A DNA stretch of 57,387 bases from an uncultured Acidimicrobiaceae bacterium (GCA_964505525.1 CAZDIQ010000002.1:1-57387); one strand, 5' to 3'. Positions 10,617 through 57,196 are shown, numbered from the stretch's first letter. Notes: a model not told the origin generated them from the letters alone. Translations and numbers: made by a program.

Positions 10617-11381
10617 ATGCTCAAATCGGTAAGCAACGCCCTACGTGTGCTCGAGTATCTCGTTGAACACGGTGAGGGTGGGGTGTCGGAGATCGGCCGG
10701 GAGCTGGGCCTCAGTCCGGGCACCGTGTATCGCTTGGTCTCCACGCTCGTTGATGCAGGATTCGCGGATCAGAACAGTGACAACCGCCGGTACGGGCCAG
10801 GGCCGCGGATTATGCAACTCTCGAATGTCATGCGAAATCGAGTCGAGTACCTTGATGTTGCTCGCATTCACCTTGAGCGGCTGACGGAGCGAGCCAACGA
10901 GACAGTGAACCTCGCCGTTATGCGCAACAATGAGGTCGTGTATGTCGATCGCGTTGTGTCGAATCGCACGCTCGCCGTCGAGGTCCGGATCGGTTCTCAC
11001 GTTCCCGCCTTCTGCACTGCACTTGGGAAGGTCCTCCTCGCATTCGGGACAGAGGAGTCTCGAGAGGCGTACCTCGACGCGCTCCCGGATCTGCCCGATG
11101 GAGGGCATGCGAAGCCAGCCGTGGGTGACTTCCGCAAGGAACTCGAGCGGGTATCGACCCAGGGTTATGCGGAGGACAAGGGCGAATTCTCGCCGGACAT
11201 CAGTTGTGTCGCAGTACCCGTTCTCAACTCCAAAGGCAAAGGAATCGCTGCCGTGAGTGTCTCTGCGCCTGCGACCCGCTTCGCAGATCGTCGCGAAGCA
11301 CTGATCCCGATGATCGAAATCACCGGCAAGGAGCTCACTCTGCTCGTCAGTGAGCTCGGGGACGATAACCCGCGGCTCTAG
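10617..11381 (+). CDS. IclR-family transcriptional regulator
   Basis: N-terminal winged HTH (ALRVLEYLVEHGEGGVSEIGRELGLSPGTVYRLVSTL) and a C-terminal IclR effector domain (VNLAVM...VVYVD, GYAEDKGEFSPDISCVAVPV). Confidence 0.9.
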   Translation: MLKSVSNALRVLEYLVEHGEGGVSEIGRELGLSPGTVYRLVSTLVDAGFADQNSDNRRYGPGPRIMQLSNVMRNRVEYLDVARIHLERLTERANETVNLAVMRNNEVVYVDRVVSNRTLAVEVRIGSHVPAFCTALGKVLLAFGTEESREAYLDALPDLPDGGHAKPAVGDFRKELERVSTQGYAEDKGEFSPDISCVAVPVLNSKGKGIAAVSVSAPATRFADRREALIPMIEITGKELTLLVSELGDDNPRL

Positions 11382-11403
11382 AGTGGTGCTCTCCATGGGG
11401 CTC

Positions 11404-11417
11404 TTTCGCTGACAGAA
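11404..11417. promoter_or_regulatory. Candidate operator (TTTCG-N5-AGAA, the reverse form of TTCT-N5-CGAAA) upstream of paralog copy 1
   Basis: TTTCGCTGACAGAA. Its reverse complement TTCTGTCAGCGAAA is nearly identical to the site upstream of iclR. A degenerate second copy (TTCTGCTATGCGG) follows at 11424..11436. Confidence 0.45.
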
Positions 11418-11491
11418 TATCCGTTCTGCTATGCGGTTAGTGTGGGCCGAGCGAGAGGACGCACCGGTACCGCGAACCCATCGGAGGACAC

Positions 11492-13870
11492 GTGACTGTT
11501 GACGCAACGCGACCGTTCACGGTTGTCGATGGAAACCTTTCGGCTGTGAGCGACAACTTGGTGGTCGTGTTCGATGCGGACACGGGTGGAATGCGCGAAA
11601 TCAGGAATCGGATCACGGGCCATGCGGTTTGCGACGCTGTGTCACCGATTCCTTGGAGACTGCAACGGGTCGGCACTCGCTGGAGTGCTTTCCCCAAGAA
11701 CCTCCCGCCATGGCTCCACGGCGACGAGATTGTGCCGGACGAGTTTCATTTCTCGATATCTGAGGACGGGTGGTCGGCCGATCTTGGTTGGTCGACGTCC
11801 ACGTATGGGATCCGGGTCTCGGTCGTCGCCAGTATCTCAAGGCAGACGGGTGACCTGGAGCTTCGGCCCACCGTTCATGTGGATGTCGGAACCGAGACAC
11901 CCGAGTTCCTGACGTATCCGATTCTTGAACATCCGACGATCGATGTCGGCACCGAGGGCGATCTGCAGTTCATCGCCCCGTCGCATTCAGGGATGATGAT
12001 TCGACGACCTCATGATGAGGCCCCGTGGGAGGCTCCATACCCGGATGGGTATGCGGGATGTTCGATGCAATTCATGGCGCTTATCGAATCAGGGTCAGGG
12101 GGGTTCTACCTGGCCTCGCACGATCCGCACTCGACATGGAAGGTGCTGCGGTTCAGCGGTGACGAATGGTCAATCTCGCACTATGCGTGGGACCTGCGAG
12201 AAGGAACGTCAATCGATCTGGAGTATCCCGTTGTGCTGGGCGCTCTGATTGTCGGTGATTGGTTCGAGGCTGCAGAGCGATATAGAAGTTGGGCGCTCAC
12301 AGCACCTTGGAGCAACTCGCACCCATCTGAGTCCATGCCCGGAGTTGACCGAGAACGCCGGCGATGGCTGCAGGAAGAAGTCGGCTTGGCGATTTGGGGT
12401 GCTCCAGCATCGCTTGATTGGTCACCGTGGTATCGCATGTACGGCGAAATAGCGGGGACACCCCTTCACATTTGCCCGATGTGGGATTGGACAAACCCGC
12501 TACCGCAGTCGCGGGGAAGGGAAGGTTGGTTCCCAGCGAGGTTTCACGAATCAAACCTGGACGCGTGGAAGGGCCATTTCGTGACGCCCTACATGAACGA
12601 TCTGTTCGTGTCGTCGTCGGCTGTCGATTTTCACGATCAGTGGGAGCCGAATGCTGTGTACCCATACGCAATATTCCCGTTCACCCGCTTCTCGGAGTTC
12701 GACCCGGGCGTGATTGCAACCGGGACACCATCCTCGGATCCGCTCGTAACGACCGACGTGCCGTTCTACATGTGTCCCGCCACCACTGCACAGACGGAGC
12801 TCCACGCATGGCGTGACCTCGGACTCATGCGCGACCATGACATGGACGGTGTCTGCTACGACATTTCATCTGGAAATCCACTCCAGATCTCTCGGTGTCT
12901 CCGCTGGGAACACGGGCATCCCCCAGGCAGGGGGAGACACATGATTGAGGCTGCGGACCGGATGAACCGCATCTCGAAACAAGTTGTTGATGGAGCAACC
13001 CACCGTTACCTCGTCCAGGGAGTGGAGACGATTGTCGAGAACATCATCGGTTCGGTCGACTTCTATGTCGCTCGCGCTGGGGCTGGACCACTCGCGTATC
13101 ACGAGGCATGGGTCCCGAGCCATGAGCAACCACCTGGAACCGGACGAGAGCTGCTTCCCATGTTCGAAGCCGTGTATCACTCCATCGGTCCTGTGCGCCA
13201 TGACGGCTGGCTCACGATGGCCGAAAATCACGGTGACATCTTCTTCTGGGCCGCGGCACGGATCGTGCTGCAGTGGGGTGGTCTGCTTTCGCTCCACTAC
13301 AGCTACGGCTTCGCATTCAATCCACCCGAACGAATCGACGGAATCGATGAGCTGCCCGAGCACGTCAACTGGGACGGCTCGACAATCCGGTTTGAAGAAC
13401 TCCCGGAACTCGATGTTGCCAAGGCATTGTTTGTCAAACAGCTGGCAACCGCTCGGACTCGGATGGCTGTACCGTACCTGGCCCATGGCACGATGATTCG
13501 ACCCGTGTCCGTCGACGTTGGCGTGACACGAGCTTCGTTCGCTGGTCGTTTCAGCTCGGCACCCACACTCGTGCTGGAAGGCACCTGGGACGTTCCATCC
13601 GTGGTCCATGGCGCGTGGCAGGCACCGAATGGAGCTATTGGGCTCATGTTCGCTGCGGTCGGGACTGAATCCGTTCAGTTCAGCTCGTCGATCGATGCCG
13701 AGAAACTGTGGGGCATTCAACTTGGTGGTTCGACGGTCACGGTTTACGACTCCGACGGCGCATTGGCCGAGTATCGCGTCGGGTCGGACAACCGAGTAGT
13801 GCTTGACTTTGTCCTCGCCTCGAGACGTGTGTACCTGGTCGAGATCGTGCGTGACGAAAAGGCTGATTGA
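11492..13870 (+). CDS. Large uncharacterised cytoplasmic protein, paralog family copy 1 of 4 (792 aa); glycoside-hydrolase-like by architecture and context only
   Basis: GTG start preceded by GGAGGA; no signal peptide. It shares long conserved blocks with 27118..29466, 39860..42154 and 54542..57196. These include YPDGYAGCS, GGFYLASHDP, FYMCPATT...HAWRD, DGVCYDISSGN, RCLRWEHGHPPGRG, QGVETI, VDFYVARAGAGP and HDGW...GDIFF. Confidence 0.85.
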   Translation: MTVDATRPFTVVDGNLSAVSDNLVVVFDADTGGMREIRNRITGHAVCDAVSPIPWRLQRVGTRWSAFPKNLPPWLHGDEIVPDEFHFSISEDGWSADLGWSTSTYGIRVSVVASISRQTGDLELRPTVHVDVGTETPEFLTYPILEHPTIDVGTEGDLQFIAPSHSGMMIRRPHDEAPWEAPYPDGYAGCSMQFMALIESGSGGFYLASHDPHSTWKVLRFSGDEWSISHYAWDLREGTSIDLEYPVVLGALIVGDWFEAAERYRSWALTAPWSNSHPSESMPGVDRERRRWLQEEVGLAIWGAPASLDWSPWYRMYGEIAGTPLHICPMWDWTNPLPQSRGREGWFPARFHESNLDAWKGHFVTPYMNDLFVSSSAVDFHDQWEPNAVYPYAIFPFTRFSEFDPGVIATGTPSSDPLVTTDVPFYMCPATTAQTELHAWRDLGLMRDHDMDGVCYDISSGNPLQISRCLRWEHGHPPGRGRHMIEAADRMNRISKQVVDGATHRYLVQGVETIVENIIGSVDFYVARAGAGPLAYHEAWVPSHEQPPGTGRELLPMFEAVYHSIGPVRHDGWLTMAENHGDIFFWAAARIVLQWGGLLSLHYSYGFAFNPPERIDGIDELPEHVNWDGSTIRFEELPELDVAKALFVKQLATARTRMAVPYLAHGTMIRPVSVDVGVTRASFAGRFSSAPTLVLEGTWDVPSVVHGAWQAPNGAIGLMFAAVGTESVQFSSSIDAEKLWGIQLGGSTVTVYDSDGALAEYRVGSDNRVVLDFVLASRRVYLVEIVRDEKAD

Positions 13871-13875
13871 CGAGA

Positions 13876-16800
13876 TCAGTCGTCGATTCGCACGACCCAG
13901 TAGGGGATGGTGTCCATATCGCCCATACCCGGGGCCATGGTTCCTCGTCCCTCGATGTCAACAACCTCGATGTAGTACATGACATCCCAGACGGGATTGA
14001 CGTATTCGCGGGGAATTTCGGCCAAGTGGCGATTGCCGCCGACCTCAGTCATGGGTATGCATTTCCACTCGTAGTACTGATTGGCGTACCGGAAGTGAAG
14101 GACCACGCGTTCGGTGGCATGCGTGTGCTCGACGGTCGCTTCGACAATGATCGGCGATCGGGCGCGGCTCCGCTCGACCGGTTCGTGATTGACCACGGGA
14201 CCCGGCACCCTGCTGTCGATCGACCGCGCCCTGAAAGCTGGTGGTGTTGCGGAGCCTGTCGGTGCGGGTAGAAACGTCGTTCGCCCAGCCGAGGTTGCGA
14301 TGAAGGAGTAGTCGATTGTGGTCCCGGCGGGCACGGATTCCGCTGGAACCACAATCTCGTAGAACAAGCCTTCCTCGCCAAGGTCCATCGGCAATGGCTC
14401 CGCGCCATCAACGATGATGGCGACCTTGTCGATCGGGTCGGGTCCGGTGGCTGAAAGCTTGAGTACGAGGTCACTTGCTTGGTCGAATGTGTCGATCGGC
14501 GCATGCGCGAGGCTCGGCGCGAGAGGGCGGACGATCAGGGCCGAGCAGAACCAGACGCATCCCGGATCGGGTGTGAAGGTCATGGCCATCAGGCCGCGAC
14601 CGAATGTCCGGCGTGCACGAAGTTCCGAGTGGGTCCCGTACGCGATGTTGCCGATGCTCCCCATGGGTTGACCGTTGAGACTGACATCGAACGGTCCGAA
14701 CGAGCGCGGATCGACGCTGCGATTGGAGAACAATGCGATGACCTCATATTCACCTGCTTCAACTACGCAATTGAACGTTGCTCGTTGGCTGCCAAACACG
14801 AAGTCTCGAAAGAGCGTGTTGGTAAAAGGAACGAGGTTCGAATATCCCGGGTCGTTCATGGTGTCGCGGAACACGGAATCGAGGTGTCGGTCGCAAAACC
14901 GTGCGAGCGGAGACGCTATGGCCTCGACGACTTCCGGGTCTTCCCATCCCCACCTGGTCTGGGTGGGGTGCTTCCACTCGACATCGGCGCCTACCCCTAC
15001 GAACCCTCTCTCCACCATATCGTGGTGCACCGCGAAGCGCGTGTAGCTGTATCCCGCTGGAGCCGCTTCGCCGAAGTCGAACGCCGCGACGGCGCCTCCG
15101 ATCGTGCCTGCGCCATAATCGCCATGGAGTGCAATTCGTTCCTCGATTCGCAACTCGTCCTCGCGAACGAGTAAGAGCTTGTCCTTCCAATGACCGCTGT
15201 CAATGGGACCAGTCACCTGGTGGTCGGTATAGACGCCGTGGGTAATTTCCGCAAGCCTCTCCCAGTGTGGCGTCGCTTGCCTGAGGTAGTTTCGGGCGGA
15301 CACAGCCTCGGCCAGATCACCTGTCTCGTAGTAGGTAGCCAATGCATACGCAGCAAGAATCTTGTGTGAGTGGTACAGAGCGAGTTCCCCCAGGGCTGCA
15401 ATGTCAGTCGCAGTGCTCGCGAGTTCAAGGCCAGCCACATCGTGGGTGGCAGGCACCGTATCGAGAACCATTGCGAGGTCGTGGCATTGTTGCCCGATAT
15501 CACGCAGGTAAGCGGACGCCGCAGGGGGAGACATTTTGGCTGTCCGATGTCCGGTGATCCGCTCCGCCACCGACTCGTCAAAGCTCGCGATCATCGCTGG
15601 GTCACTCGGAGGGACCGACGCGTAGAAATCGAGCAGACCTCCGGTGTCAGCCTCTGGCCAGATATACATGTTCGGATCACTCATGTTGTATCGAATCAAG
15701 AAGCTCACGACCCGAGACGCCCATGTGTACCCCTCTAGGACGTGCTCGGCTGCCTCCCCAAAGCGACACCTGAGGTGCCGTAGCCACGTCTCTTCTCGCG
15801 CGTTCGGGTTGTAGGTGAGACGACCGAACAGCAGGTAGAACAGCCAGTATCGCTGCCATTCCCACTGGTAGTACTCGTGTTCGGATTCGAGAATCCGCCA
15901 TGTACCGGGTTCGTTCCCATAGCCCTTCTGCGCAAGCGGTGGCGAAATCTCGAATCCGATCGAATCCCCGAGGGCGAGTCCGCGTGCGAACGTCCGCACG
16001 AATCGTGGGTCTCCCCACACGAAATGGCGATGGGATCCGAGGGTCCAGACCTGGTACGAAATGTCGTACGGCCGGTCACGGGCGAGGAAGTCGGCATAGC
16101 TGTATGCCGGCTCTTGCTTCGGTGCCGGGTAGGGCGCTCCAAGGTGTTCAGCCCAATGCTTCATCGAAAGGCGCATCGGGATATCTGCATCAATGACCGC
16201 ATCGACGGTTTCCGGGAGCGCGATCCAGCCACGAAGATCCAGAAGAACCTCGCGATCGGCTTCGCGGATTGCCCTGACAATCGAGTTCGCAAAGAAGTCT
16301 GTCTGTTCATCCTGAGGAATCCCGGACTCCCCGTTGACGCGGATCTGGATGCCGGAGATTGCTGGAAACTGTAAGAGCATCTTGCGCGTAGCCTGATATG
16401 TGTAGTCCGTGAGCATGTCGTCGCTCAGTCCCTCTACGAGGCTCCGCTGGACATGGCCTCCGCGAGAGCCTGGCGACCATGCTTTGACTTGCCAGATGCC
16501 AAGGACGAACGCCAGCCCGCGTGCCGCCGCCATCTCTGACACCATTTTGAGACTCTCAGCGTTGCGAGCCTGGTCCGAGGCAGAGAGTCCCGAGACGAAG
16601 ACCTCGGGGTGGTCTTCGACGGATACGAAGTAGGGGAACGGAGGTGCCAAGTAGTTTGTCTGGTGGGCCATCACGATCTGAAAGCTGTTGAATCGACTAC
16701 GAGCCATCAGGTCGAAGTAGGCGGTCCAGTGGGCTTCGGAGTGGAACCACTCAGCGTCGCAGTCAGCGTTGTGCAGGAAGGTGAACACTCCTCGAAATGC

Positions 16801-17142
16801 TGTGTGTGGCGATTCGGAGGTCGCCCGCAGTTCGGAAACCCGCACTCCCTCGAGGTCCAACTGGTCGGCGACTTCAAGCAATCCATACATCAAACCTTGT
16901 TCATCGGCACCAATGAGTAGCGCGGCCGGGCCGACGTGGTTGAGCTCAAACGCTTCCTCGCGTTCGGGCAGTCGCAACCCCGCCTGCAACGCGATGTCAG
17001 CGATTTCGGGATTCGACATGACGCCAGCAATGATGTCTGCCTCGCCCGATGTAACAACCTCGATCCGGGCGGCTGATCCGAGGCGGTCGAGCGCGTACGT
17101 GGTCTTGGTCCCGACCGGTCCGAGTATCCGCACGCGCACCAC
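13876..17142 (-). CDS. Large (1088 aa) putative glycoside hydrolase-like protein, function unknown
   Basis: The N-terminal region (AFELNHVGPAALLIGADEQGLMYGLLEVADQL) resembles the GH20b/GH67-N type domain. A probable TIM-barrel region and C-terminal beta-sandwich-like domains follow. There is no signal peptide. This is a single uninterrupted ORF. Confidence 0.6.
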   Translation of the reverse strand: MVRVRILGPVGTKTTYALDRLGSAARIEVVTSGEADIIAGVMSNPEIADIALQAGLRLPEREEAFELNHVGPAALLIGADEQGLMYGLLEVADQLDLEGVRVSELRATSESPHTAFRGVFTFLHNADCDAEWFHSEAHWTAYFDLMARSRFNSFQIVMAHQTNYLAPPFPYFVSVEDHPEVFVSGLSASDQARNAESLKMVSEMAAARGLAFVLGIWQVKAWSPGSRGGHVQRSLVEGLSDDMLTDYTYQATRKMLLQFPAISGIQIRVNGESGIPQDEQTDFFANSIVRAIREADREVLLDLRGWIALPETVDAVIDADIPMRLSMKHWAEHLGAPYPAPKQEPAYSYADFLARDRPYDISYQVWTLGSHRHFVWGDPRFVRTFARGLALGDSIGFEISPPLAQKGYGNEPGTWRILESEHEYYQWEWQRYWLFYLLFGRLTYNPNAREETWLRHLRCRFGEAAEHVLEGYTWASRVVSFLIRYNMSDPNMYIWPEADTGGLLDFYASVPPSDPAMIASFDESVAERITGHRTAKMSPPAASAYLRDIGQQCHDLAMVLDTVPATHDVAGLELASTATDIAALGELALYHSHKILAAYALATYYETGDLAEAVSARNYLRQATPHWERLAEITHGVYTDHQVTGPIDSGHWKDKLLLVREDELRIEERIALHGDYGAGTIGGAVAAFDFGEAAPAGYSYTRFAVHHDMVERGFVGVGADVEWKHPTQTRWGWEDPEVVEAIASPLARFCDRHLDSVFRDTMNDPGYSNLVPFTNTLFRDFVFGSQRATFNCVVEAGEYEVIALFSNRSVDPRSFGPFDVSLNGQPMGSIGNIAYGTHSELRARRTFGRGLMAMTFTPDPGCVWFCSALIVRPLAPSLAHAPIDTFDQASDLVLKLSATGPDPIDKVAIIVDGAEPLPMDLGEEGLFYEIVVPAESVPAGTTIDYSFIATSAGRTTFLPAPTGSATPPAFRARSIDSRVPGPVVNHEPVERSRARSPIIVEATVEHTHATERVVLHFRYANQYYEWKCIPMTEVGGNRHLAEIPREYVNPVWDVMYYIEVVDIEGRGTMAPGMGDMDTIPYWVVRIDD

Positions 17143-17329
17143 GCCCTATCTCCTTCCGTGCCTTGCTGGTGAGACGTCGCGGATGAATCGATCCCGGGGT
17201 GGCGACAATGCGGATGCATAGTCCGGTGGCACGAGAATCGGTCCGATTCGGCCAGCATCGTTTGGGGGCATTGCTTCGTCTTGCATCTGATACAGACTCG
17301 ACTGTACATCGCGCATAGAAGAAGAGCTA

Positions 17330-17343
17330 TTCTTGATTCGAAA
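17330..17343. promoter_or_regulatory. Candidate operator (TTCT-N5-CGAAA) in the divergent region between 17142(-) and 17374(+)
   Basis: TTCTTGATTCGAAA lies 31 nt upstream of the ATG at 17374. Confidence 0.4.
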
Positions 17344-17373
17344 CAACCGTCTGAAAGGATTCGACACCCGACC

Positions 17374-19479: not shown

Positions 19480-19531
19480 GGACGGAAGAATCTGACGTCC
19501 GCCGAGACCTTGCAGAAGCCAAGGGAGGAAC

Positions 19532-35794: not shown

Positions 35795-35966
35795 TGTCAG
35801 CCTTCGGTCAATGTTGCGAACCGGGAAAGCCATCAAGTAGCATTTCACTGGATGGAATACCGTTTCAAAGTTAGTGCTGCCCGTGTCCCCTGTCAATGTG
35901 GACGGGGCGCTGCGTCGTCCACGGCATCGACCTGATGGGCTACCCGCCGATGACCATGCCAGAACC

Positions 35967-37271: not shown

Positions 37272-37339
37272 GGGCATGGGTAGTGTTTGACGCGCGCCCA
37301 TTGAAATGGCAAGCTGCTATGTGAAATGGTGACCAACCG

Positions 37340-38428: not shown

Positions 38429-38470
38429 GGTGATCCTCCGCATCGACGACCGCGACGACACACCGGGTGC

Positions 38471-44537: not shown

Positions 44538-44781
44538 TCTCGACTCACTGATTCATCGCTCCCGGTGCGTGCATAGTTGTATCTTCGTATCAGAGTAGCG
44601 TGTCGGCTGCATAGAAGAAAATCGTTTCGTTATACGTATGTTGCGAACCAACTCCGGCAATTCTCAACCCGCTCCTGTCTGGATCTGCCTGCTGGCCTTG
44701 ACCCCCTTGCCACGGCGCCGACCGGGCAGCGGCCTTGCAGTTGGCGTTGCGACGGGCTAATTTCACAACAGCGAATAAGGT

Positions 44782-45706: not shown

Positions 45707-45708
45707 AT

Positions 45709-49027: not shown

Positions 49028-49044
49028 CAGGAGGGGTGAGACCC

Positions 49045-50259
49045 ATGCAAGGATTTGAGCACTTAACCGGTCCGGTGTCCGGTGTGTCGAGGCGTGCGTC
49101 CTCTTGGGACAGGACCGGAGCCAACGCAGATTGGATCGAGGTTGACCCGGGGGAGACTGTGACCCTCATGGAGCACCAGGGTCCCGGAGCAATCACGCAT
49201 CTGTATGCAGCCATGATGTATCCCGAACTGGCAGACTATCGGGACGCGATCATCAGATGCTATTGGGACGGTGCTGATGTGCCTTCGGTGGAAGTACCCC
49301 TCGGAGACTTCTTCACGGTCGTACACGGCCGCGTACGAGAAATCAAGAGCGCCATGGTCACCATCAATCCCGGGTTTGGCGTTTCTCATGGAATGAGTGC
49401 GTACTTTCGCATGCCGTTCGCACAGGGAGCGGTGATCACGCTCGAGAATCGCGGTCCGTCGCGCCTTGGTGGGCGCATCGGGAATCTGTGGTACCACGTG
49501 GACTACGACGTTCTCGACGAGGCTGCTCACGCCGAACCCATGCGATTCCACGCCCAATACCGTCAGGAACGCCCTGCGATTCCGGTTGGTCCTGAGCCCG
49601 GGAAGCAGCTGCATGGAGCGTCCAATCTCACCGGGGAAGAGAACTACGTCGTCGTGGATACCCAAGGCGAGGGTCGAATGGTCGGACTGGTCCTGGAGGT
49701 CGACAATCACGTTGGCGGATGGTGGGGTGAGGGCGACGATATGGTGTTCGTCGACGGCCATTCATGGCCACCCGCGATCCATGGAACAGGCACGGAGGAA
49801 ATCTTCTCAGGCGGTGCCTCGCCGGGATGGGAGTATGCAGGTCCATACACGGGGACCCATCTCATCGAATCGCCCGACTACGCAGGGTTGACGGGAATGT
49901 ATCGGTGGTACCTCCATGACCCAATCAGTTTCCACAACTCTCTTCTGTGGACCATCGAGCACGGGCACGCCAACAATTTCGCGAACGACTACTCATCGGT
50001 TGGGTATTGGTATCAGACGCCAGCCGTGTCGGTCGTGGGGACGCTTCCTGCCCGGCAGGACATGTTGCCTCGTCTCGGAGAGGATCACGACACAGCCCGC
50101 GCCCTCCTTGAAGATACGGTCGTGCAGGCCCGCGAGTTGGGTGGCGAGGCATATGTCACGGCCGCGCGATCAGTCGCACCATTCTATGAGGGTAGGTTTG
50201 CCGAAGCGATCGACTCCATGAATGCCGTCAGGGCCGAGCTCGGTCTGGAGTCCGACTAG
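49045..50259 (+). CDS. DUF2961 / glycoside hydrolase family 172 protein (copy 2 of 3)
   Basis: Close paralog of 46173..47417 with the same motif set, for example WWGEGDDMVFVDGHSWPPAIHGTGTEEIFSGG. The start is set at ATG 49045 behind RBS AGGAGGGG. Confidence 0.85.
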   Translation: MQGFEHLTGPVSGVSRRASSWDRTGANADWIEVDPGETVTLMEHQGPGAITHLYAAMMYPELADYRDAIIRCYWDGADVPSVEVPLGDFFTVVHGRVREIKSAMVTINPGFGVSHGMSAYFRMPFAQGAVITLENRGPSRLGGRIGNLWYHVDYDVLDEAAHAEPMRFHAQYRQERPAIPVGPEPGKQLHGASNLTGEENYVVVDTQGEGRMVGLVLEVDNHVGGWWGEGDDMVFVDGHSWPPAIHGTGTEEIFSGGASPGWEYAGPYTGTHLIESPDYAGLTGMYRWYLHDPISFHNSLLWTIEHGHANNFANDYSSVGYWYQTPAVSVVGTLPARQDMLPRLGEDHDTARALLEDTVVQARELGGEAYVTAARSVAPFYEGRFAEAIDSMNAVRAELGLESD

Positions 50260-51233
50260 AGCGGCGTGGGTGCCTGTGGGTCGATGAGATTCTCGGTGGC
50301 AAGCTCGGCCCACAGATCCGAAGGAATGTCGACCGACATCAACGCGGCATTGGTGCGGATTTCGTCGGGGGATCGGGCACCTGTGATTACCGTTGCCACA
50401 GCTGGGTGTGCGAGAGGGAACTGCACCGCTGCCGCGATGGGGTCGACTCCGTGGCGATGGCACACTTCGCGAATCCTGACAGCCTTCGAGACCACGGCGT
50501 CAGGGGCAGCCTCATAGTTGTACTTGGCATCTCCGTCGGGGTCGACCATCACGCCACTGTTGAAGACGCCGCCGGCAATGATCGAGAACTGTCGCTCAAT
50601 CGCCAACGGGAGCAGCTCGACGAGAGCTGTTTGTTCGAGGAGCGTGTATCGACCAGCCAGTAGCACGCAGTCGAATTCTGCTCGCGAGGCGAGGTATACA
50701 AGGGGTTCGACCCAATTCATTCCGGCACCGATCGCCCCGACGATCCCTTCACTCCGCATGTCATGGAGTGCCCTGTACGTGCCATCAAGCGCTTCGTCGA
50801 GTGCGTCGTCGGGGTCGTGGATCAGCGCGACATCGACGCGATCGAGACCGAGCCGCTCAAGGCTCTCTTCAAGGGATCGGCGGGCTCCGTCGTACGAAAA
50901 GTCGAATTCGGCGGTGTGCGAATGGTCTCCTTCGAAGAGTCCGGGGTCCGACTCCGTCTCGACCAGCAATCGCCCCATCTTCGTCGATAACGTGTATCCA
51001 GTGCGTGGGTGTGCTGCGAGAACCGAGCCGAGCCACCGTTCTGATTGGCCATATCCATAGAACGGAGCGGTGTCGAAGTAGCGCAATCCGAGGTCCCATG
51101 CCGCCTGCACCGTAGCAAGTCCGGTCTCCTCGTCGATTGCTGCCGGCCATCCCCCGAGTGGGGCGGTACCCAACCCGAGCCTTGTAACCGGGACCGTGCT
51201 TGCCCCGAGGGTGGTTCTTTCGGTCGGATCCAT
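50256..51233 (-). CDS. Aldo/keto reductase (D-threo-aldose/L-fucose 1-dehydrogenase-like subgroup)
   Basis: Sequence shows LGLGTAPLGG and YFDTAPFYGYGQSERWLG. The start is moved to ATG 51233 (MDPTERT...) behind RBS AGGAGG. Confidence 0.8.
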   Translation of the reverse strand: MDPTERTTLGASTVPVTRLGLGTAPLGGWPAAIDEETGLATVQAAWDLGLRYFDTAPFYGYGQSERWLGSVLAAHPRTGYTLSTKMGRLLVETESDPGLFEGDHSHTAEFDFSYDGARRSLEESLERLGLDRVDVALIHDPDDALDEALDGTYRALHDMRSEGIVGAIGAGMNWVEPLVYLASRAEFDCVLLAGRYTLLEQTALVELLPLAIERQFSIIAGGVFNSGVMVDPDGDAKYNYEAAPDAVVSKAVRIREVCHRHGVDPIAAAVQFPLAHPAVATVITGARSPDEIRTNAALMSVDIPSDLWAELATENLIDPQAPTPL

Positions 51234-51246
51234 TGGCGGCCTCCTG

Positions 51247-52185
51247 TCAGACGATTGCGATTGGTCGAAGAGCGAATCCAGCAGTGGCTCCTCGGACGGG
51301 AGGAACAAGTGCGATATAGGTGAATTCGTAGCGCCCATCCCGCGCAAGGTCCTCGAGATTGTGGAGTTCTCCCATGTGGACGCCTTGATCGACCAACAAG
51401 TACTCGTGGACGGGCGAGGGTGATGGTGCTCCGTCGATCGGAGGGATTACCTCGAGCGTCGACGTGTCACCGCCGATCAACATGGCGCCACACTCTTCGA
51501 CGAGCCATCGCGCAGCGCCAAGAGTTATCCCTGCAGAATCGGGACCAGCAATTGCCGCATGGTCGTGCCCGGCAACACCCCAGTGACGCATCGCCCCGGA
51601 TCTCACCATGACGACTGACCCGGGTGCTATTTCGATTCCCTGGTGGTCCAGAACTGCCCGGAGCTCGTCGGCCGTGATGGCATAGGACGGTTGAAGTTCG
51701 TCGATCCCCAGATATCTGGGTATGTCGAGCAGAACTCCGCGAGCGATGATTGGTGGGATCGACGCGGCGCTCGCCTTCGTTGCACCGAAGTCCGACGACC
51801 ACTCGGCTGCGGTGAACCCGTTGTACCAGTGATTGTCCGCACCCTTGGTAGCGTGGCACAAACCGTCCAGCTGGGTACCTGCGTGATCGGACAACGTGAT
51901 CATGGAAGTGAAGAAGCTCATCCCTTCGTCCGGCTCCCCGAAGTCCCCACTTCGTTTGATACCTTCTGCGGTCCGGAACGTCAGCACCTCGGTACCGACG
52001 TGACCAGGCCATAGAAACGACCCGCGATCAAGGGCGACGCCGAGGTCATACACAGCGCCATGCTTCGGAGCACTGAGAGCCGCCAGAGTGGTTTCGGCAG
52101 TCATCGCGTTCAGGGCACCGATTTCATCTTCATCACCCCAAATCCAACCCCAGCCTTCTCCGCGTTGCCATCCCGGTTTACCCAT
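51247..52185 (-). CDS. Putative cyclase-family protein (kynurenine formamidase fold, PF04199-like)
   Basis: Sequence shows YDLGVAL, LSDHAGTQLDGLCH and RGVLLDIP. The start is moved to ATG 52185 (MGKPGW...) behind RBS GGAGGA. Confidence 0.7.
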   Translation of the reverse strand: MGKPGWQRGEGWGWIWGDEDEIGALNAMTAETTLAALSAPKHGAVYDLGVALDRGSFLWPGHVGTEVLTFRTAEGIKRSGDFGEPDEGMSFFTSMITLSDHAGTQLDGLCHATKGADNHWYNGFTAAEWSSDFGATKASAASIPPIIARGVLLDIPRYLGIDELQPSYAITADELRAVLDHQGIEIAPGSVVMVRSGAMRHWGVAGHDHAAIAGPDSAGITLGAARWLVEECGAMLIGGDTSTLEVIPPIDGAPSPSPVHEYLLVDQGVHMGELHNLEDLARDGRYEFTYIALVPPVRGATAGFALRPIAIV

Positions 52186-52302
52186 GGTCTCCTCCACTTG
52201 CGAACTCCGCTTGGATCTGATCCGCACTCGCGATCAGTGTAGGCTGATGATTCCTCATGACGGAAAGGTGTTTCCCAAGATGAACGATAGGGTGGTGGTC
52301 AG

Positions 52303-53373
52303 ATGACAGGCCTCGATTCGCTTCCTCGACTGCTCAACGTCGAATCGCGCTCGATCAGCGCCGAGAATCCGAGCGGCGAGCGCGGTGGCGGTGGCAAAGC
52401 TACCGAAGGAACCGGCGCCATCGCGTCGCGGGATCTCGGGCGGGGATGGAAGGTGTCGCCGAGCATCGTCATCCCACCAGGCGACACCGCCGTTCTGGCG
52501 GACATCAACGGCTGCGGGATGATCCGTCACATCTGGATCACATCCGCCGCTGATCGATGGCGCGATTTCATCCTTCGAATGTCATGGGATGGGAGTCCGG
52601 AGCCGGCCGTCGAAGTACCCCTGGGTGACTTCTTCTGCAACGGTTGGAAGTCCTTCAGTCAGGTCGACTCGGTTCCGATTGCTGCGAATCCCAACGGTGG
52701 CTTCAACTCGTACTGGCCCATGCCATTTCGGTCTGGTGCTGTCATCACGATCGAGAATCGGGCTGAGGTCGAAGGCAAGTGTTACTTCCAGATCGACTAC
52801 ACACTCGGGGATGAGCAGGAGGATTCGTTCGGATACTTTCATGCCCAGTGGCGGCGGAGCAATCCTCTTCCATACATGGCGACACATGAGCTCCTCGAGC
52901 TTCCCGCGGGCTCGGGTCACGGTCACTATGTGGGGACGTACATTGCCTGGGGTGTCAACAATTCCGGGTGGTGGGGGGAGGGCGAAGTCAAGATGTATCT
53001 CGACGGTGACGATGAGTTTCCCACGATCTGCGGCACCGGCACAGAAGACTACTTCGGCGGAGCTTGGAACTTTGATCTCCCCGGCAAAGGCTACACACCG
53101 TTCACGACGCCGTATCTCGGACTCAATCAAGTCACTCCGACGGACGGCCTGTATGCGAGTCAACAGCGGTTCGGCATGTACAGATGGCACATTCCCGACC
53201 CGGTCGTGTTCCGCGACTCACTTCGCGTCGACATCCAGGCGCTCGGGTGGAGATCGGGCCATCGATACCTGCCGCTGCAGGATGACATTGCTTCAACCGT
53301 CTTCTTCTACCTCGATTCAGCATCGGCAAGACGTCCGGAGCTTGCATCGTCCGACCATCTGGAGGTGATCTGA
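52303..53373 (+). CDS. DUF2961 / glycoside hydrolase family 172 protein (copy 3 of 3, divergent and shorter)
   Basis: Sequence shows GMIRHIWIT, WDGSPEPAVEVPLGDFFCNGW, NSYWPMPF and WWGEGEVKMYLDGDDEFPTICGTGTEDYFGGAWNF. Confidence 0.85.
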   Translation: MTGLDSLPRLLNVESRSISAENPSGERGGGGKATEGTGAIASRDLGRGWKVSPSIVIPPGDTAVLADINGCGMIRHIWITSAADRWRDFILRMSWDGSPEPAVEVPLGDFFCNGWKSFSQVDSVPIAANPNGGFNSYWPMPFRSGAVITIENRAEVEGKCYFQIDYTLGDEQEDSFGYFHAQWRRSNPLPYMATHELLELPAGSGHGHYVGTYIAWGVNNSGWWGEGEVKMYLDGDDEFPTICGTGTEDYFGGAWNFDLPGKGYTPFTTPYLGLNQVTPTDGLYASQQRFGMYRWHIPDPVVFRDSLRVDIQALGWRSGHRYLPLQDDIASTVFFYLDSASARRPELASSDHLEVI

Positions 53374-53374
53374 C

Positions 53375-54541
53375 ATGGCCACGATCGTTGGTGTGAGGAC
53401 GGTGCCGTACAACTACACCATGACTCGCAGGATTGGTGATGTTCATCTCCCCGACGGCACGGATTCGGGCTCAGACATGGCCGTATTTGTCGATACCGAC
53501 GAAGGAATCTCGGGTGTGGCAATCGGGTACGGTCAAGGCTCAAGCGACGTCCAACGGTTCGCAAAACTCGTGATCGGCGAAGACCCGCGAGCGACTCGGG
53601 CACTGTGGGAACGGATGGTGGCGCTCAGCTTCAAGATGGGACTCGCCGGGGGTACGAAGATTGCAGTCTCAGCGATTGACGCTGCCTTGTGGGATCTCAA
53701 GGCGAAGCTGAATGGTGTGCCACTGTGGAAGGAGGTCGGCGCCGTTGAAGGATCCGCGGCAGGGTATGCAAGCGGTCTCGACACGCCATTGTCCGATTCA
53801 GAGCTTGACTCGTTCTACCGGAGGATGGCAGCCAGGGGATTCAATGCAGGGAAACTGAAGGTAGGCGCTGATCAGGACGCAGACCTTCGTCGGTTGGGCA
53901 TCATGAAGGAAGCCCTTGCTTCGAGTGGTAAGCACCCGGTTTTGATGGTCGATTCCAACGAGTACTGGACCCCCAAGCAGTCGATCGCACGAATTCGTGA
54001 GATGGAACGGGAGTTCGACCTTCTCTGGGCAGAAGAGCCAGCAGGCAGGCGGGATGTGGTAGGACTTCGCACCGTTTCTCGAGCAATAACCGCCGCAGTG
54101 GCAACCGGAGAGAACCTCGACAGCAGCGCGGATTTCGCAGCCCTGATACGTGCCGAAGCAGTCGACGTCATCCAAATCGGGGCCTTGACATCGGGGATCA
54201 CGGGAGCACTGCAGGTGGCCGATATGGCATACGCCAACGGCATTCCGGTCGCCATGATGAATTGTCCCGGGCGCCACATGGCCCATGTCGCCGCCGCGCT
54301 CCCTCATCATCTCATGATGGAGATTTTGGACTGCGGACGTGACCAAGCCTTCTCGCACGAAGCTGAGCTCGTGGACGGTCGTGTGCAATTGGGGAATGCA
54401 CCGGGATCCGGGATCGTGATTCGTGCCGAAGTCCTTGAGGGAACCGATGTCGTCGAACCGTCCCCTTCGTCGCTGAGGGCGATCTATCGCAAGTCGCCCG
54501 GTTCGTGGATCAACGAATCACGGTCGCCCGGACGCGAGTGA
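53375..54541 (+). CDS. Enolase-superfamily enzyme (mandelate racemase type), probable sugar-acid dehydratase
   Basis: GKLKVG (KxK), MVDSN, WAEEP and ATGEN metal ligands. RBS GGAGGTGA. It starts 1 nt after the GH172 stop. Confidence 0.85.
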   Translation: MATIVGVRTVPYNYTMTRRIGDVHLPDGTDSGSDMAVFVDTDEGISGVAIGYGQGSSDVQRFAKLVIGEDPRATRALWERMVALSFKMGLAGGTKIAVSAIDAALWDLKAKLNGVPLWKEVGAVEGSAAGYASGLDTPLSDSELDSFYRRMAARGFNAGKLKVGADQDADLRRLGIMKEALASSGKHPVLMVDSNEYWTPKQSIARIREMEREFDLLWAEEPAGRRDVVGLRTVSRAITAAVATGENLDSSADFAALIRAEAVDVIQIGALTSGITGALQVADMAYANGIPVAMMNCPGRHMAHVAAALPHHLMMEILDCGRDQAFSHEAELVDGRVQLGNAPGSGIVIRAEVLEGTDVVEPSPSSLRAIYRKSPGSWINESRSPGRE

Positions 54542-57196
54542 CTATTTCAGCGGGACAGGTGTGAACTCCACCAGTATCACAGCCCGCGGTGGCAACGAAA
54601 CGGTCACGGCTTCGCCGGGGGCAAATGACCCGAGCTGCGTGCTACCTCTCGTGCCCACAGCGACAGCGTCGGAGTATGCGACAATGCTCGGAACGAACGC
54701 AATCTCCTGGTTGGTCGCCGATAGCAGATTGACGAACAGGTGGCCCGTTTGGCCAGAATCGCAAGTCCATGCGACTTGGACGATGGAACCAGTGCGCAGC
54801 GTGCCGTCCTCAAGCCGAAGCCGGTGGACGGAATTGAAGTGACTCCAGTCAAGCGCGATGTCAGGAATGTCACTGAGAATCCTGCCTGACGGAATCATGC
54901 GGCCGTATGCCAGATACTTTGTGGCGAAGTCGGTTCGTGCTGCCGCAAGCTCACGGATGAACGCAATCTTTGCTGGATCCACCACGGGCGGGTCCAACTC
55001 CTCGTATATCTGATTGGTGTAGACAAGCTGATACGACGAGCCACTCATGCCAGGAAACAGTTCGAGGGGTGAGAACTCGTAGTTCAGCTGGAGCAAACCA
55101 CCCTCGAGCGATACGCGAGCACCGATCTCGTAGAAGATGTCGCCGAATTCGGGGGACAGCTTTGCCCATCCGTCGAGCATGACGGGGCCGTATTCGTGGT
55201 AGACATACGAGAACATGGGAATCTTTCGTGCCCGCCCGGTCTTCTGCCATTCGACGAATTCCTCGCCCTCCATCGTCGCCTGTACGCCAGCCCCCGCCCG
55301 GCATTGAGCGAAGTCGATCTCACCGATCAGATTCTCGATGATTACCTCGGTACCGATCGGTAGGTATGCACCGTGCGTCGCGCTTTTTTGGGCCGTTGCC
55401 CGTGACGTCGCAAGGACATCTGCGTAGGCATCAATCATGTATCGACCGAATCCTGTGGGGTGGTCATGCTTGTCGTTCATGCAGATTGTCGGCGTCGCAC
55501 AACTGGCACTGACGTCGTAGTAGATGCCATCCACCCCCTCCCGTGCGAGCTCCGTATCGACATCGGCATGCCATTGACGCCAGTAGTCGGTCGTTGGGCA
55601 CATGAACGCTGTGGTGAAGGGCGTGATCGGGACGTGGCAACCGTAGGCCTCAGTGTCGTGTCCGTACCCGATGAAGTCGCGCCACAGGAACGGCACGAGA
55701 TAGTCGCCGTTGCGCTTGAACGCCTCTCGATTCTGCTCGTCCCACACGACCGGAAGCCGCAACGGCTTGACGTTGAACGAGTCCCAAAGGTTCATCCGGA
55801 ATCTGACAAGGACATCTCGCAGTTCGTCTATGTTCTCTTCCGTGGCTGGGACACCGAGCACAGCCCCGAGTTCCTGAAGTGATGGCGTTGTGTTGTGCGG
55901 TGCCAACAGGTCCGCGAGCGCTCTCCATCGCTGTGGAGCGATATGAATCGCACCTCCTTCCCAATCGTGCCCGACGATATGCAGCACTGGTCCCCCCGTG
56001 ATTTCGTGGAAGGCGTCGAACCATTTGCTGATGTCAAAGGTGGCAGGTAGCCCGAAGGTATTGAATCCGACCTCTTCAACGAGCCACCGGCTCGCATCGC
56101 CGCCGTCGATGCGCTGTTTCAACGTGCCACGTCTTACCCAGTCGGGATGGCCATTTCCGCTGCCGGTGGCCCAGTCGCGGTACCGGTCGGCCGCCTCGAA
56201 CCAAGCCCCGTCCGTGGTCACACCGACAAGCGTCGGATACGAGATTTCCAAGTCTGAGCCTGTTGTCCAGTCCCAGGCGTAGTGCACGACGCTGGTGGTG
56301 AGTCCGTCGGTGCCGTCTGTCGAGTAGAAGTGGAACATCTTCTCGGTGGCGTGTGGGTCGTGGGTGGCAAAGTAGAAGCCCCCGATGTTCTCCTTGTAGA
56401 AGGTCCAGAACTGAGTGGGAGCCCCCTCGAAGCCGCTCGGGTACCCCCGGACCCGAAACAGACCGCCGTGGCCGTTGCCTTCGTCGGGATGTCCACTCGG
56501 ATCCGTGGTGGCAATGATCCGTCGCGCTCTCCACCCTTCCAGAATCTCTGGATCCTTGAACAACGTGTGCGGGTCATCGAATTGGAATCCGCCGTCCACA
56601 CTGTGGGCCAGACGATTGTCCGTGGACGATTCTCCCAGTGGGCGGATTCCATCGATGATCGGATACTCGATAGCCAGGACGGAGGCATCGGTACCGTTGA
56701 TGATGCGACTGGTGAACTCTGCGTCGGTCGCACCGTCACGGAGCTCGATACGTGCCTCGACCGTTATGCCGTCTGAACGCGTCCATTGGAGCGTGACGGC
56801 GGTTCCTTCATGAAACTCGCTGTCGAGCGATGCTTCGAAGTCGCCGAACTGATCCGACCAGCTTCCGCCGATGGTGTCCTTGAGAAAGTGAAGGAACATC
56901 TCGGTCTTGCCGGTGACCTGTCCGCGGAATGTTCCGCGGCGGTCGAAGACCCTCGGATCGATCTTCGCGAGCTGAATGCGGAAAGGTACTCGAGACCGCC
57001 ATTCCGGATTGACCATTTCGAGGTTTGCATCAAGATTGACCATGGATCGGATGGTCCCATCGGTGCCATCCACCTCTATGTGGAGGTGTTCGTTCTCTAC
57101 GACGATTGCACCTCGGTTCCCGACGGCCTCGTGACGAATGGTCGCGCGTCGTCTTGTGTCGACGGTGCCTGTGCGCACTCCCGAATGTTCTGTCAT
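54542..57196 (-). CDS. Large uncharacterised cytoplasmic protein, paralog family copy 4 of 4 (884 aa, most divergent)
   Basis: The family blocks are retained: GGFYFATHDP, AFMCPTTD, DGIYYDVSAS, ICMNDKHDHPTGFG, IGTEVI, IDFAQCRAGAG and LDGW...GDIFY. There are extra N-terminal sequence and a ~60-aa insertion after LHIVGHDW. The start is set at ATG 57196; the ORF is open to 57295. Confidence 0.8.
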   Translation of the reverse strand: MTEHSGVRTGTVDTRRRATIRHEAVGNRGAIVVENEHLHIEVDGTDGTIRSMVNLDANLEMVNPEWRSRVPFRIQLAKIDPRVFDRRGTFRGQVTGKTEMFLHFLKDTIGGSWSDQFGDFEASLDSEFHEGTAVTLQWTRSDGITVEARIELRDGATDAEFTSRIINGTDASVLAIEYPIIDGIRPLGESSTDNRLAHSVDGGFQFDDPHTLFKDPEILEGWRARRIIATTDPSGHPDEGNGHGGLFRVRGYPSGFEGAPTQFWTFYKENIGGFYFATHDPHATEKMFHFYSTDGTDGLTTSVVHYAWDWTTGSDLEISYPTLVGVTTDGAWFEAADRYRDWATGSGNGHPDWVRRGTLKQRIDGGDASRWLVEEVGFNTFGLPATFDISKWFDAFHEITGGPVLHIVGHDWEGGAIHIAPQRWRALADLLAPHNTTPSLQELGAVLGVPATEENIDELRDVLVRFRMNLWDSFNVKPLRLPVVWDEQNREAFKRNGDYLVPFLWRDFIGYGHDTEAYGCHVPITPFTTAFMCPTTDYWRQWHADVDTELAREGVDGIYYDVSASCATPTICMNDKHDHPTGFGRYMIDAYADVLATSRATAQKSATHGAYLPIGTEVIIENLIGEIDFAQCRAGAGVQATMEGEEFVEWQKTGRARKIPMFSYVYHEYGPVMLDGWAKLSPEFGDIFYEIGARVSLEGGLLQLNYEFSPLELFPGMSGSSYQLVYTNQIYEELDPPVVDPAKIAFIRELAAARTDFATKYLAYGRMIPSGRILSDIPDIALDWSHFNSVHRLRLEDGTLRTGSIVQVAWTCDSGQTGHLFVNLLSATNQEIAFVPSIVAYSDAVAVGTRGSTQLGSFAPGEAVTVSLPPRAVILVEFTPVPLK

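Follow-up and report, generated by a model that had tools for sequence, protein, structure and literature searches.

A conserved catabolic island in an Acidimicrobiia-like soil actinobacterium places candidate DUF6259 glycosidases beside GH172 enzymes and a possible D-arabinose pathway

To our knowledge, no enzyme able to cleave mycobacterial D-arabinan was known before 2023, and those described so far belong only to glycoside hydrolase (GH) families GH172 and GH183 and to a subfamily of GH116. Here we describe a ~47-kb gene island (positions 10617-57196) in a 57,387-nucleotide stretch of DNA from an uncultured Acidimicrobiaceae bacterium (GCA_964505525.1, CAZDIQ010000002.1:1-57387; this whole stretch is called the window below, and gene positions, given with the strand, are counted from its first letter), in which three GH172 proteins stand together with four paralogs of the uncharacterised family DUF6259. 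In the D-arabinan locus of Microbacterium arabinogalactanolyticum (Shimokawa et al. 2023, PMC10509167), an extracellular endo-enzyme is combined with ATP-binding cassette (ABC) import and intracellular exo-enzymes, among them ExoMA1 (PDB 8IC8), an intracellular exo-α-D-arabinofuranosidase without a signal sequence that acts on ABC-imported D-arabino-oligosaccharides. In Dysgonomonas gadei, polysaccharide utilization locus 42 (PUL42; Al-Jourani et al. 2023, PMC10115798; Ross et al. 2026 preprint) contains three GH172 paralogs that differ in linkage preference (bioRxiv 10.64898/2026.08.13.744632).

The island resembles the Microbacterium locus in its predicted intracellular GH172 exo-α-D-arabinofuranosidase, in ABC import followed by cytoplasmic exo-hydrolysis, in the adjacent genes for D-arabinose metabolism and in its actinobacterial host, but it differs in several respects: the window has neither the GH183 endo-arabinanases nor the GH116 exo-β-D-arabinofuranosidase; the solute-binding protein (SBP) is of family 5 (Opp-type) rather than family 8; a ribokinase-like kinase, an arabinose-5-phosphate-isomerase-like protein and an oxidative acid-sugar pathway take the place of an isomerase and a kinase; and four DUF6259 proteins, a GH138-like protein and several oxygenases are added. 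Three GH172 paralogs in one locus are also found in PUL42, although that is a Bacteroidota Sus-type system with GH183 and with periplasmic or surface enzymes, whereas the enzymes of the island are cytoplasmic and do not include GH183. In our judgement there is about an even chance that the island is a conserved, multi-operon system for the catabolism of imported oligosaccharides of α/β-D-arabinofuranose, with putative activities and a presumed substrate that would most likely consist of fragments of Corynebacteriales cell-wall arabinogalactan or lipoarabinomannan (LAM), freed extracellularly by other enzymes or organisms.

The original prediction, made from the sequence alone, had proposed a locus for an unusual furanosidic glycan, with oligosaccharide import followed by breakdown inside the cell. 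The furanosidic part of this idea gained support from GH172c (52303-53373, +; Pfam), residues 2-355 of which align with residues 2-353 of ExoMA1 at ~70% identity (phmmer against 8IC8, E = 1.6e-157), such that GH172c is, by similarity, predicted to be an ExoMA1-type exo-α-D-arabinofuranosidase. The compartment also agrees: none of the eight glycosidase candidates of the island (four DUF6259, three GH172 and one 1088-residue GH138-like protein) has an N-terminal hydrophobic segment, as the prediction had stated, whereas a family-5 solute-binding lipoprotein (25281-26963, +; Pfam SBP_bac_5) bears a lipoprotein signal with the lipobox LVAAAC, and two proteins of the left flank bear signal peptides. 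Together with two BPD_transp_1 permeases and two oligo_HPY ATPases (29444-33380, -; Pfam), this lipoprotein makes up an Opp/Dpp-type ABC importer. The island thus pairs an importer with intracellular exo-enzymes, as D-arabinan loci do, albeit with an SBP of a different family from those of the characterised loci.

All four DUF6259 paralogs score above the Pfam gathering score for the family (PF19773, 28.7 bits): DUF6259-A (11492-13870, +; 41.5 bits), a predicted cytoplasmic glycosidase without signal peptide; DUF6259-B (27118-29466, +; 53.8 bits); DUF6259-C (39860-42154, -; 46.7 bits); and DUF6259-D (54542-57295, -; 79.8 bits), for which the likely start is M34, at ~57196. Paralogs A, B and C share ~45% identity with one another, and D shares 29-34% with these three. 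A full-text literature search for 'DUF6259' found no paper, and a search of the 2023-2026 literature on D-arabinofuranosidases found no work on the family. Searched against solved structures, paralog B gave no match (phmmer, PDB), and the family profile gave only a marginal match to ZgGH129 (E = 0.027), with a weak second segment of the alignment that puts the invariant GTE of the family, and hence E504, on the GTEHG of ZgGH129. An AlphaFold2 model of paralog B, built from 40 homologs, was of high confidence (pLDDT 94.3, pTM 0.94) and comprises an N-terminal β-sandwich, a (β/α)8 barrel and a C-terminal β-sandwich. Its best Foldseek match was the GH36-type α-galactosaminidase of Flavonifractor (FpGalactosaminidase, 8x1b; E = 2e-21), followed by ZgGH129, GH129 NagBb (TM up to 0.68), GH36 α-galactosidases, GH101 and GH31, at ~10-13% identity; E values of 2e-21 to 1e-17 against 8x1b and the GH129 structures 5opq and 5wzn place the model in the GH129/GH36-like fold class, while the profile and phmmer results leave the family outside GH129 as a sequence family.

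Five acidic residues of paralog B, D449 (in the motif YYDIS), E504, E508, D515 and D563, are invariant across the four paralogs and homologs from Paenibacillus, Cohnella and Virgibacillus, and two of these, D449 and E504, are candidate catalytic residues, with a mechanism presumed to be retaining. On the basis of the GH129/GH36-like fold, the invariant residues and the marginal sequence match to ZgGH129, we read DUF6259 as an uncharacterised glycosidase family and not as a member of GH129, that is, as a candidate new glycosidase family with putative activity. DUF6259 has the three-domain architecture of GH129 (NagBb, an α-N-acetylgalactosaminidase, and ZgGH129, a 3,6-anhydro-D-galactosidase), GH36, GH101 and GH31 (Foldseek E values of 2e-21 to 1e-13), but without significant sequence match to any of them, and its genomic partners are GH172 and GH183 rather than mucin or carrageenan genes. 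It further differs from GH129-type folds in an invariant Cys2His2 cluster (C420, C461, H466 and H468 in the numbering of paralog B, arranged as C...C-x4-H-x-H), which is conserved from Acidimicrobiia to Firmicutes and could bind a metal within the barrel domain. A search of 1.84 billion proteins with the family profile yielded 3426 representative matches at E <= 1e-3, of which 606 reach E <= 1e-30; DUF6259 is a widespread but rare family. For nearly all homologs outside Actinomycetota, paralog D was the best match (33-35% identity to the Paenibacillus, Cohnella and Virgibacillus proteins), and the D type is common to Firmicutes and Chloroflexota; because D also adjoins GH172c in the window, these two genes look like an old core, with A-C as a probable lineage-specific expansion.

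Genomic context linked DUF6259 to D-arabinan enzymes across phyla. In 63 genome loci with a DUF6259 homolog, GH172 lay within 10 kb of the homolog in 24, GH183 in 20 and both in 16; when only loci of at least 12 kb were counted, these numbers were 22 (GH172), 19 (GH183 endo-D-arabinanase) and 16 (both) of 41. By comparison, since a genome holds just a few GH172 and GH183 genes, a random 20-kb window carries one of them ~1% of the time (an estimate, not a computed value). The linked loci include those of Paenibacillus, Cohnella, Chloroflexota and Gaiellaceae. In Paenibacillus timonensis, the gene order is AXE1 esterase, AraC regulator, lipoprotein GH183, family-1 SBP with permeases, cytoplasmic DUF6259, ExoMA1-like GH172 and a 728-residue protein of unknown function; in Cohnella, it is GH172, FGGY kinase, GH172, GH183, SBP, permeases, DUF6259 and a 703-residue protein of unknown function. 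By analogy, these clusters follow the published scheme in which an endo-enzyme acts outside the cell, an ABC system provides import and exo-enzymes act inside (PMC10509167), with DUF6259 among the predicted intracellular enzymes. The glycosidase fold of the model and this recurrent adjacency to GH172 and GH183 bear out the expectation that the paralogs would supply missing linkage specificities, at the level of putative activities; the co-occurrence with GH172, GH183 and GH116 that had been proposed as a check held for the first two families, whereas GH116 was seen neither in the window nor, by Pfam scan, in the Paenibacillus and Cohnella clusters. Downstream of GH172 or DUF6259 in 10 D-arabinan-type clusters (L029:13540-15726, L039:11943-14054 and eight further Firmicute loci; L numbers denote loci of related genomes that were compared with the window), we also observed a ~700-residue protein without Pfam match or PDB sequence match, which is a second uncharacterised candidate enzyme. 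It was discarded as a member of the island, as the window has no homolog of it.

Comparative genomics provided the decisive evidence, across phyla as above and also within the lineage. The nearest relatives of the window proteins are almost only metagenomic, those with names being metagenome-assembled genomes (MAGs) of Acidimicrobiia or Actinomycetota, and the host is an uncultured, Acidimicrobiia-like soil actinobacterium. In one Acidimicrobiia MAG (SMAG_U16116), each of the three parts of the island has a counterpart on a contig of its own, with 65-87% identity: MR1-SGL-SIS-MR2-SBP5-DUF6259B; ligase-DUF6259C-Rieske-ARH-P450; and DUF6259D-GH172-MR3-GH172c-cyclase-AKR-GH172b-ALDH-GH172a-SnoaL (the families are introduced below). 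A DUF6259-C ortholog of 69% identity occurs in L010. A 38-kb contig (L001 and L070) carries a rearranged version in two blocks, one with SGL-SIS-PfkB-MR-SBP5-DUF6259-GGT-AKR-DUF6259 beside the ABC importer genes, which are syntenic with those of the window at 73-77% identity, and the other (L070) with an operon of GH172, DUF6259 and a 1087-residue homolog of the 1088-residue protein, beside an OYE gene, a P450 and a ferredoxin. In L003, L005, L006 and L011, the same families recur in other orders (IclR, SnoaL, FAH, MR, cyclase, HpcH, AKR, SBP5-ABC, GH172, ARH and P450). Clustering was thus kept in related metagenomic contigs, as one of the proposed checks had asked, and the scattering of homologs among relatives that would have spoken against a functional unit was not what we found.

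The other two GH172 proteins could point to a different furanosidic substrate. All three GH172 proteins belong to the family (234, 237 and 302 bits against a DUF2961 cutoff of 27), but GH172a (46173-47417, +) and GH172b (49000-50259, +; both Pfam DUF2961) match ExoMA1 only at E = 2e-29 and 1e-31, and their best solved relative is the α-D-fructofuranosidase αFFase1 (E = 5e-62 and 8e-60). This, with a PfkB kinase that also matches fructokinase models, would be expected if the island broke down α-D-fructofuranosides or difructose dianhydrides (from inulin, levan or caramel-type material) by αFFase1-like GH172 enzymes and a fructokinase. The same two proteins, however, match the Bacteroides and D. 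gadei-type GH172 proteins almost equally well (E = 5e-61 to 2e-55), the kinase scores 243 bits as a ribokinase against 75 as a fructokinase, no GH32 or GH91 is present, GH172c is ExoMA1-like, and DUF6259 co-occurs with GH183, which plays no part in fructan use; we therefore consider fructofuranoside breakdown very improbable, and the least probable of the explanations discussed here.

A uronic-acid glycan is a slightly better candidate, though still an improbable one. The 1088-residue protein (13876-17142, -; phmmer, AlphaFold2 and Foldseek) matches the GH138 enzyme BPa0997 over ~385 residues at ~15% identity (phmmer E = 4.6e-10), and its AlphaFold2 model (pLDDT 89.3) has GH138 6hzf as its best Foldseek match (E = 8e-34, TM 0.64-0.76), followed by GH67 and GH84; 408 homologs were found. 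It shares its fold and weak sequence similarity with the GH138 α-galacturonidase BT0997/BPa0997 (PDB 6HZE-6HZG) but has ~300 extra C-terminal residues that form β-sandwich domains in the model, is predicted to be cytoplasmic and has, in a relative, a homolog that shares an operon with GH172 and DUF6259; with such low identity it is at most a distant GH138 relative. If the target were a pectic rhamnogalacturonan-II-like or microbial acidic polysaccharide, the GH138-like protein could remove an α-uronic acid, and an extended short-chain dehydrogenase (SDR) acting as uronate dehydrogenase and galactarate/talarate-type dehydratases of the mandelate racemase (MR) type could then pass the product to an aldolase or aldehyde dehydrogenase (ALDH). 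GH138 α-galacturonidase and GH67 α-glucuronidases are indeed the fold neighbours of the 1088-residue protein, L-talarate/galactarate dehydratase is the top NCBIfam match of all three MR enzymes, and the HpcH protein resembles 2-dehydro-3-deoxyglucarate aldolase (NCBIfam). Yet these matches fall far below their family cutoffs (for example, 156-285 bits against 500), the identity to GH138 is low, and a uronic-acid target leaves unexplained the three GH172 proteins, the ExoMA1 ortholog, the pair of arabinose-5-phosphate-isomerase-like and ribokinase-like proteins and the linkage of DUF6259 to GH183.

These metabolic genes can also be read in terms of D-arabinose, as expected if D-arabinofuranose oligosaccharides were the substrate. 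A single-domain SIS protein (22464-23069, +; NCBIfam), a candidate KpsF/GutQ-like arabinose-5-phosphate isomerase, scores 161.7 bits against the kpsF cutoff of 203.7 and 159 bits, below cutoff, as GutQ, and has a SIS domain only, without CBS domains; single-domain arabinose-5-phosphate isomerases exist. Its gene overlaps by 4 bp that of the PfkB kinase (23066-23953, +; NCBIfam), which scores 243.4 bits for ribokinase (TIGR02152, below the cutoff of 299.65) and 40 bits for fructoselysine kinase. A fructosamine (FrlB/FrlD) reading of the pair was rejected on these scores and on the KpsF/GutQ-like character of the SIS protein. Because the SIS protein is KpsF/GutQ-like, its gene overlaps that of a ribokinase-like kinase and, in Virgibacillus (L023), GH172 is likewise immediately preceded by a SIS gene, the similarities suggest a route from D-arabinose via arabinose-5-phosphate to ribulose-5-phosphate by the kinase and the SIS isomerase.

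A second set of genes resembles oxidative, non-phosphorylative sugar pathways, such as those of Sulfolobus (AraDH, AraD, KdaD and α-ketoglutarate semialdehyde dehydrogenase) and Xanthomonas (an AKR L-fucose dehydrogenase, a lactonase, FucD and a FAH hydrolase). The MR1 acid-sugar dehydratase (MR/MLE; 19532-20653, +; Pfam) and FAH1 (20650-21513, +; Pfam) form with an SGL lactonase a translationally coupled unit (19532-22397, +; 4-bp overlaps at each junction) that is syntenic in L007; MR2 (24025-25122, +; Pfam) and MR3 (53375-54541, +; Pfam) are further enolase-superfamily proteins, MR3 having a 74% identical ortholog at the same position in L020, and arabinonate dehydratase is the second-best NCBIfam match of all three, below cutoff. 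An operon of FAH2 (44858-45706, +; 2-oxopent-4-enoate hydratase-like), SnoaL (45709-46176, +; Pfam), GH172a, ALDH and GH172b (44858-50259, +; Pfam, NCBIfam) is syntenic in L020; a cyclase-family metal hydrolase (51247-52227, -) is paired with an aldo-keto reductase (AKR; together 50256-52227, -; Pfam), and both recur in L005, L006, L011 and L020; and an acyl-CoA ligase (42151-43764, -) and an HpcH/HpaI aldolase (together 42151-44537, -; Pfam) share an operon with DUF6259-C, with 4-bp overlaps at the junctions. An extended-SDR NAD-dependent dehydrogenase (33332-34321, +; Pfam Epimerase; true start probably ~33540) gave 166 bits as Azf-like, below the NCBIfam cutoff. By analogy, the AKR, the SGL and cyclase-family hydrolases, the three enolase-superfamily enzymes, the two FAH proteins, ALDH and HpcH could constitute an oxidative D-arabinose/L-fucose pathway, in that AKR, lactonase, enolase-superfamily dehydratase, FAH-fold, ALDH and class II aldolase families stand side by side in both, although the island has several paralogous copies, none of which reaches an equivalog cutoff, and the assignment of steps is accordingly provisional. 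In L003, an AKR-GH172 pair adjoins DUF6259 within a genomic context that is otherwise unrelated, as would fit an aldose dehydrogenase whose substrate is the sugar released by GH172; the AKR itself had no PDB relative at E = 1e-30. We also observed that MR2 is the best-conserved island protein in relatives (74-87% identical orthologs in L001, L006, L007 and L011), its best solved relative being a structural-genomics enolase (3tj4/4h19, E = 9e-106) named only 'mandelate racemase'.

Other genes are less readily placed in sugar catabolism. The original prediction had described essentially every gene as catabolic, and the catabolic families it listed are indeed present, but about one-quarter of the genes are not obviously carbohydrate enzymes. 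The genes that it had omitted or grouped as oxidoreductases are, besides the acyl-CoA ligase, SnoaL and the cyclase-family hydrolase, an OYE/FadH-type FMN and FAD oxidoreductase (17281-19479, +; Pfam Oxidored_FMN and Pyr_redox_2), a cytochrome P450 (34565-35968, -; Pfam p450), an ADP-ribosylglycohydrolase (ARH; 35874-37271, +; Pfam), a GbcA-like Rieske oxygenase (37340-38428, +; Pfam, NCBIfam) and a DAO-type, sarcosine-oxidase-like FAD oxidase (38471-39766, +; Pfam, NCBIfam). The ARH-Rieske-DAO operon (35874-39766) resembles N-demethylation or amine-oxidation modules more than sugar catabolism. In relatives, ARH and Rieske remain beside DUF6259-C (L010), ARH lies near DUF6259 and GH172 (L005), P450 orthologs are linked to DUF6259 (L005, L010 and L070), and the OYE ortholog adjoins the GH172-DUF6259 operon (L070). 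The island could then be a mosaic of independent modules without a common substrate, in which DUF6259 and GH172 deglycosylate assorted small furanosyl or other glycoconjugates (natural products, ribosyl- or ADP-ribosyl-type or N-methylated compounds) and the P450, Rieske, DAO, acyl-CoA ligase, OYE reductase and hydratase/aldolase pair degrade the aglycones. Such a mosaic would account for the ~12 transcription units on both strands; for the genes atypical of carbohydrate use, which also include the HpaH/HpaI-like hydratase and aldolase; for the recurrence of such families with DUF6259 and GH172 in L005, L010 and L070, together with PhyH dioxygenases and ferredoxin; and for a family-5 SBP, typical of peptide, opine and conjugate uptake. 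It is nevertheless unlikely, if the most serious of the competing explanations, given that the block is dominated by the eight glycosidase candidates, three acid-sugar dehydratases, a lactonase, an AKR and a sugar kinase/isomerase pair, that GH172c is an ExoMA1 ortholog, and that cultured Firmicutes carry DUF6259 in polysaccharide-type clusters with secreted GH183 and a sugar ABC system. The P450, Rieske, DAO, ARH, acyl-CoA ligase and OYE proteins, which travel with the rest of the set in relatives, probably act on substituents other than sugars or on a second type of furanosyl conjugate.

Regulation was assessed from the IclR-family regulator at the left end of the island (10617-11381, +; Pfam HTH_IclR and IclR_C), an ortholog of which (50-51% identical) lies beside the cluster in L006 and L011. 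The 11-mer GCATAG[A/C]AGAA occurs three times in the window, always in promoter regions (0.26 copies expected; none of 100 shuffles reached three): in a candidate operator upstream of DUF6259-A (11414-11434), where the palindrome AGAA-N6-TTCT overlaps GCATAGCAGAA; in a candidate operator of the divergent GH138-like/OYE promoter (17313-17333), with GCATAGAAGAA and AGAAGAGCTATTCT; and as a third copy of the GCATAGAAGAA motif, found by motif search, in the divergent HpcH/FAH2 promoter (44609-44619). The palindrome accompanies two of the three copies. Across 13 promoter regions, shared 13-mers were in modest excess (80, against 30-74 in shuffles). In relatives, the palindrome is only sporadic. Two promoter regions of L005 (9926-9939 and 17956-17969), a related DUF6259/GH172 cluster with a LacI regulator, carry an identical near-palindrome, AGAAATCGATTTCA, whose half-sites resemble those of the window palindrome. 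The earlier description of the island as headed by IclR thus holds for the position of the gene, its ortholog beside the cluster in two genomes and a short shared promoter motif, and for nothing beyond these; as the motif is not conserved in relatives, IclR co-regulation remains a suggestion, and control of several units by IclR is plausible but weakly supported.

Several observations weigh against D-arabinofuranose oligosaccharides as the substrate of one coherent system. GH183 (DUF4185) had no Pfam match in the window open reading frames (ORFs), and two GH183 proteins used as tblastn queries had no match in the window; no GH116 domain was found in the window ORFs by Pfam either. The window is consequently not a complete canonical D-arabinan locus, and the endo-enzymes may have to come from genes elsewhere in the genome or from neighbouring organisms. 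In characterised and Firmicute D-arabinan loci, the SBP is of family 1 or 8 and not of family 5, the window has no homolog of the Firmicute ~700-residue protein, and the 11-mer was not found in relatives (69 loci). GH172a and GH172b are as close to αFFase1 as to D-arabinofuranosidases, the enzymes closest in fold to the GH138-like protein have α-uronic acids as substrates, and all metabolic enzymes lie far below their NCBIfam equivalog cutoffs. Furthermore, in 16 of the 41 long loci no GH172 or GH183 gene lies within 10 kb of DUF6259, and the Virgibacillus locus suggests that DUF6259 is not tied to one glycan. In that locus (L023, Virgibacillus ndiopensis, 2964-20649), DUF6259 occurs with a sulfatase, a formylglycine-generating enzyme (FGE), an AXE1 esterase, SIS, GH172 and GH42 but without GH183, an arrangement that suggests an additional role of the DUF6259/GH172 pair on another glycan, which may be sulfated. 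As a whole, the original interpretation as a glycan locus stood with respect to the furanosidic glycan, the glycosidase-like paralogs, the conserved clustering and the cytoplasmic model, and was weakened by the absence of GH183 and GH116 from the window and by the quarter of the genes without obvious carbohydrate function.

The layout of the window is consistent with a resident, multi-operon locus. Pfam and NCBIfam scans of all large window ORFs recovered, in place, everything in the predicted ~47-kb inventory (by Pfam, the four paralogs, three GH172 proteins, the 1088-residue protein, three enolase-superfamily enzymes, two FAH proteins, lactonase, AKR, ALDH, HpcH, SIS, PfkB and the Opp-type ABC system), and gene spacing and strand changes indicate ~12 transcription units on both strands rather than a single operon, with 4-bp overlaps at the MR1-FAH1-SGL, SIS-PfkB, HpcH-ligase-DUF6259C and SnoaL-GH172a junctions. 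The window has no tRNA genes and no integrase or transposase domain was found in any scanned ORF, in agreement with the prediction, and its GC content is even (0.585-0.632); on these three grounds a mobile island was rejected. The contig stops at the right edge of the island, which may therefore extend further. The left flank appears unrelated, with a TPR/cyclase protein, an amidohydrolase, a secreted GH114, a secreted 615-residue protein and a branched-chain ABC system. The 615-residue protein (2943-4790), with a signal peptide, Gly-rich repeats and no Pfam match, and the GH114 protein (4977-6626; endo-α-1,4-polygalactosaminidase family, E = 1e-87), also with a signal peptide, are the only extracellular glycan-related proteins of the window, and linkage of either to the island was found in no relative examined.

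Taken together, the components suggest a D-arabinofuranose oligosaccharide pathway of four steps. Oligosaccharides, the presumed substrate, would be imported by the family-5 lipoprotein SBP and the Opp-type ABC system, both of which are encoded in the island, and the eight cytoplasmic glycosidase candidates, whose folds and conservation were observed, would dismantle them. The D-arabinose released could be converted by the ribokinase-like kinase and the single-domain arabinose-5-phosphate isomerase to ribulose-5-phosphate, or could enter an oxidative, Weimberg/Dahms/fucose-like route through the AKR as aldose dehydrogenase, a lactonase (SGL or cyclase family) and an enolase-superfamily dehydratase, with the product passing either to a FAH enzyme and ALDH or to the HpcH aldolase. 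The local IclR protein would probably control at least three promoter regions with the common motif. A bolder proposal, which we regard as possible but on balance doubtful, is that DUF6259 is a new, cytoplasmic GH family that acts together with GH172 on oligosaccharides from D-arabinan and cleaves a linkage or decoration outside the reach of GH172 and GH183, with four specificities in Acidimicrobiia and coupled to an undescribed D-arabinose route via arabinose-5-phosphate to ribulose-5-phosphate, by the ribokinase-like kinase and the single-domain isomerase; under that proposal, one possibility is that it targets 1,2-cis β-D-arabinofuranose caps, as a non-orthologous replacement of GH116.

DUF6259, whose genes are tied to those of GH172 and GH183 in many uncultured lineages as well as in cultured Paenibacillus and Cohnella, would extend the toolbox of D-arabinan enzymes for dissecting arabinogalactan and LAM (LAM epitope mapping, diagnostics and cell-wall biology), and the cultured Paenibacillus and Cohnella hosts make the hypothesis directly testable. 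The route through the kinase and the arabinose-5-phosphate isomerase, if true, would be a new way of D-arabinose catabolism, and the island as a whole suggests that soil Acidimicrobiia recycle the cell walls of Corynebacteriales.

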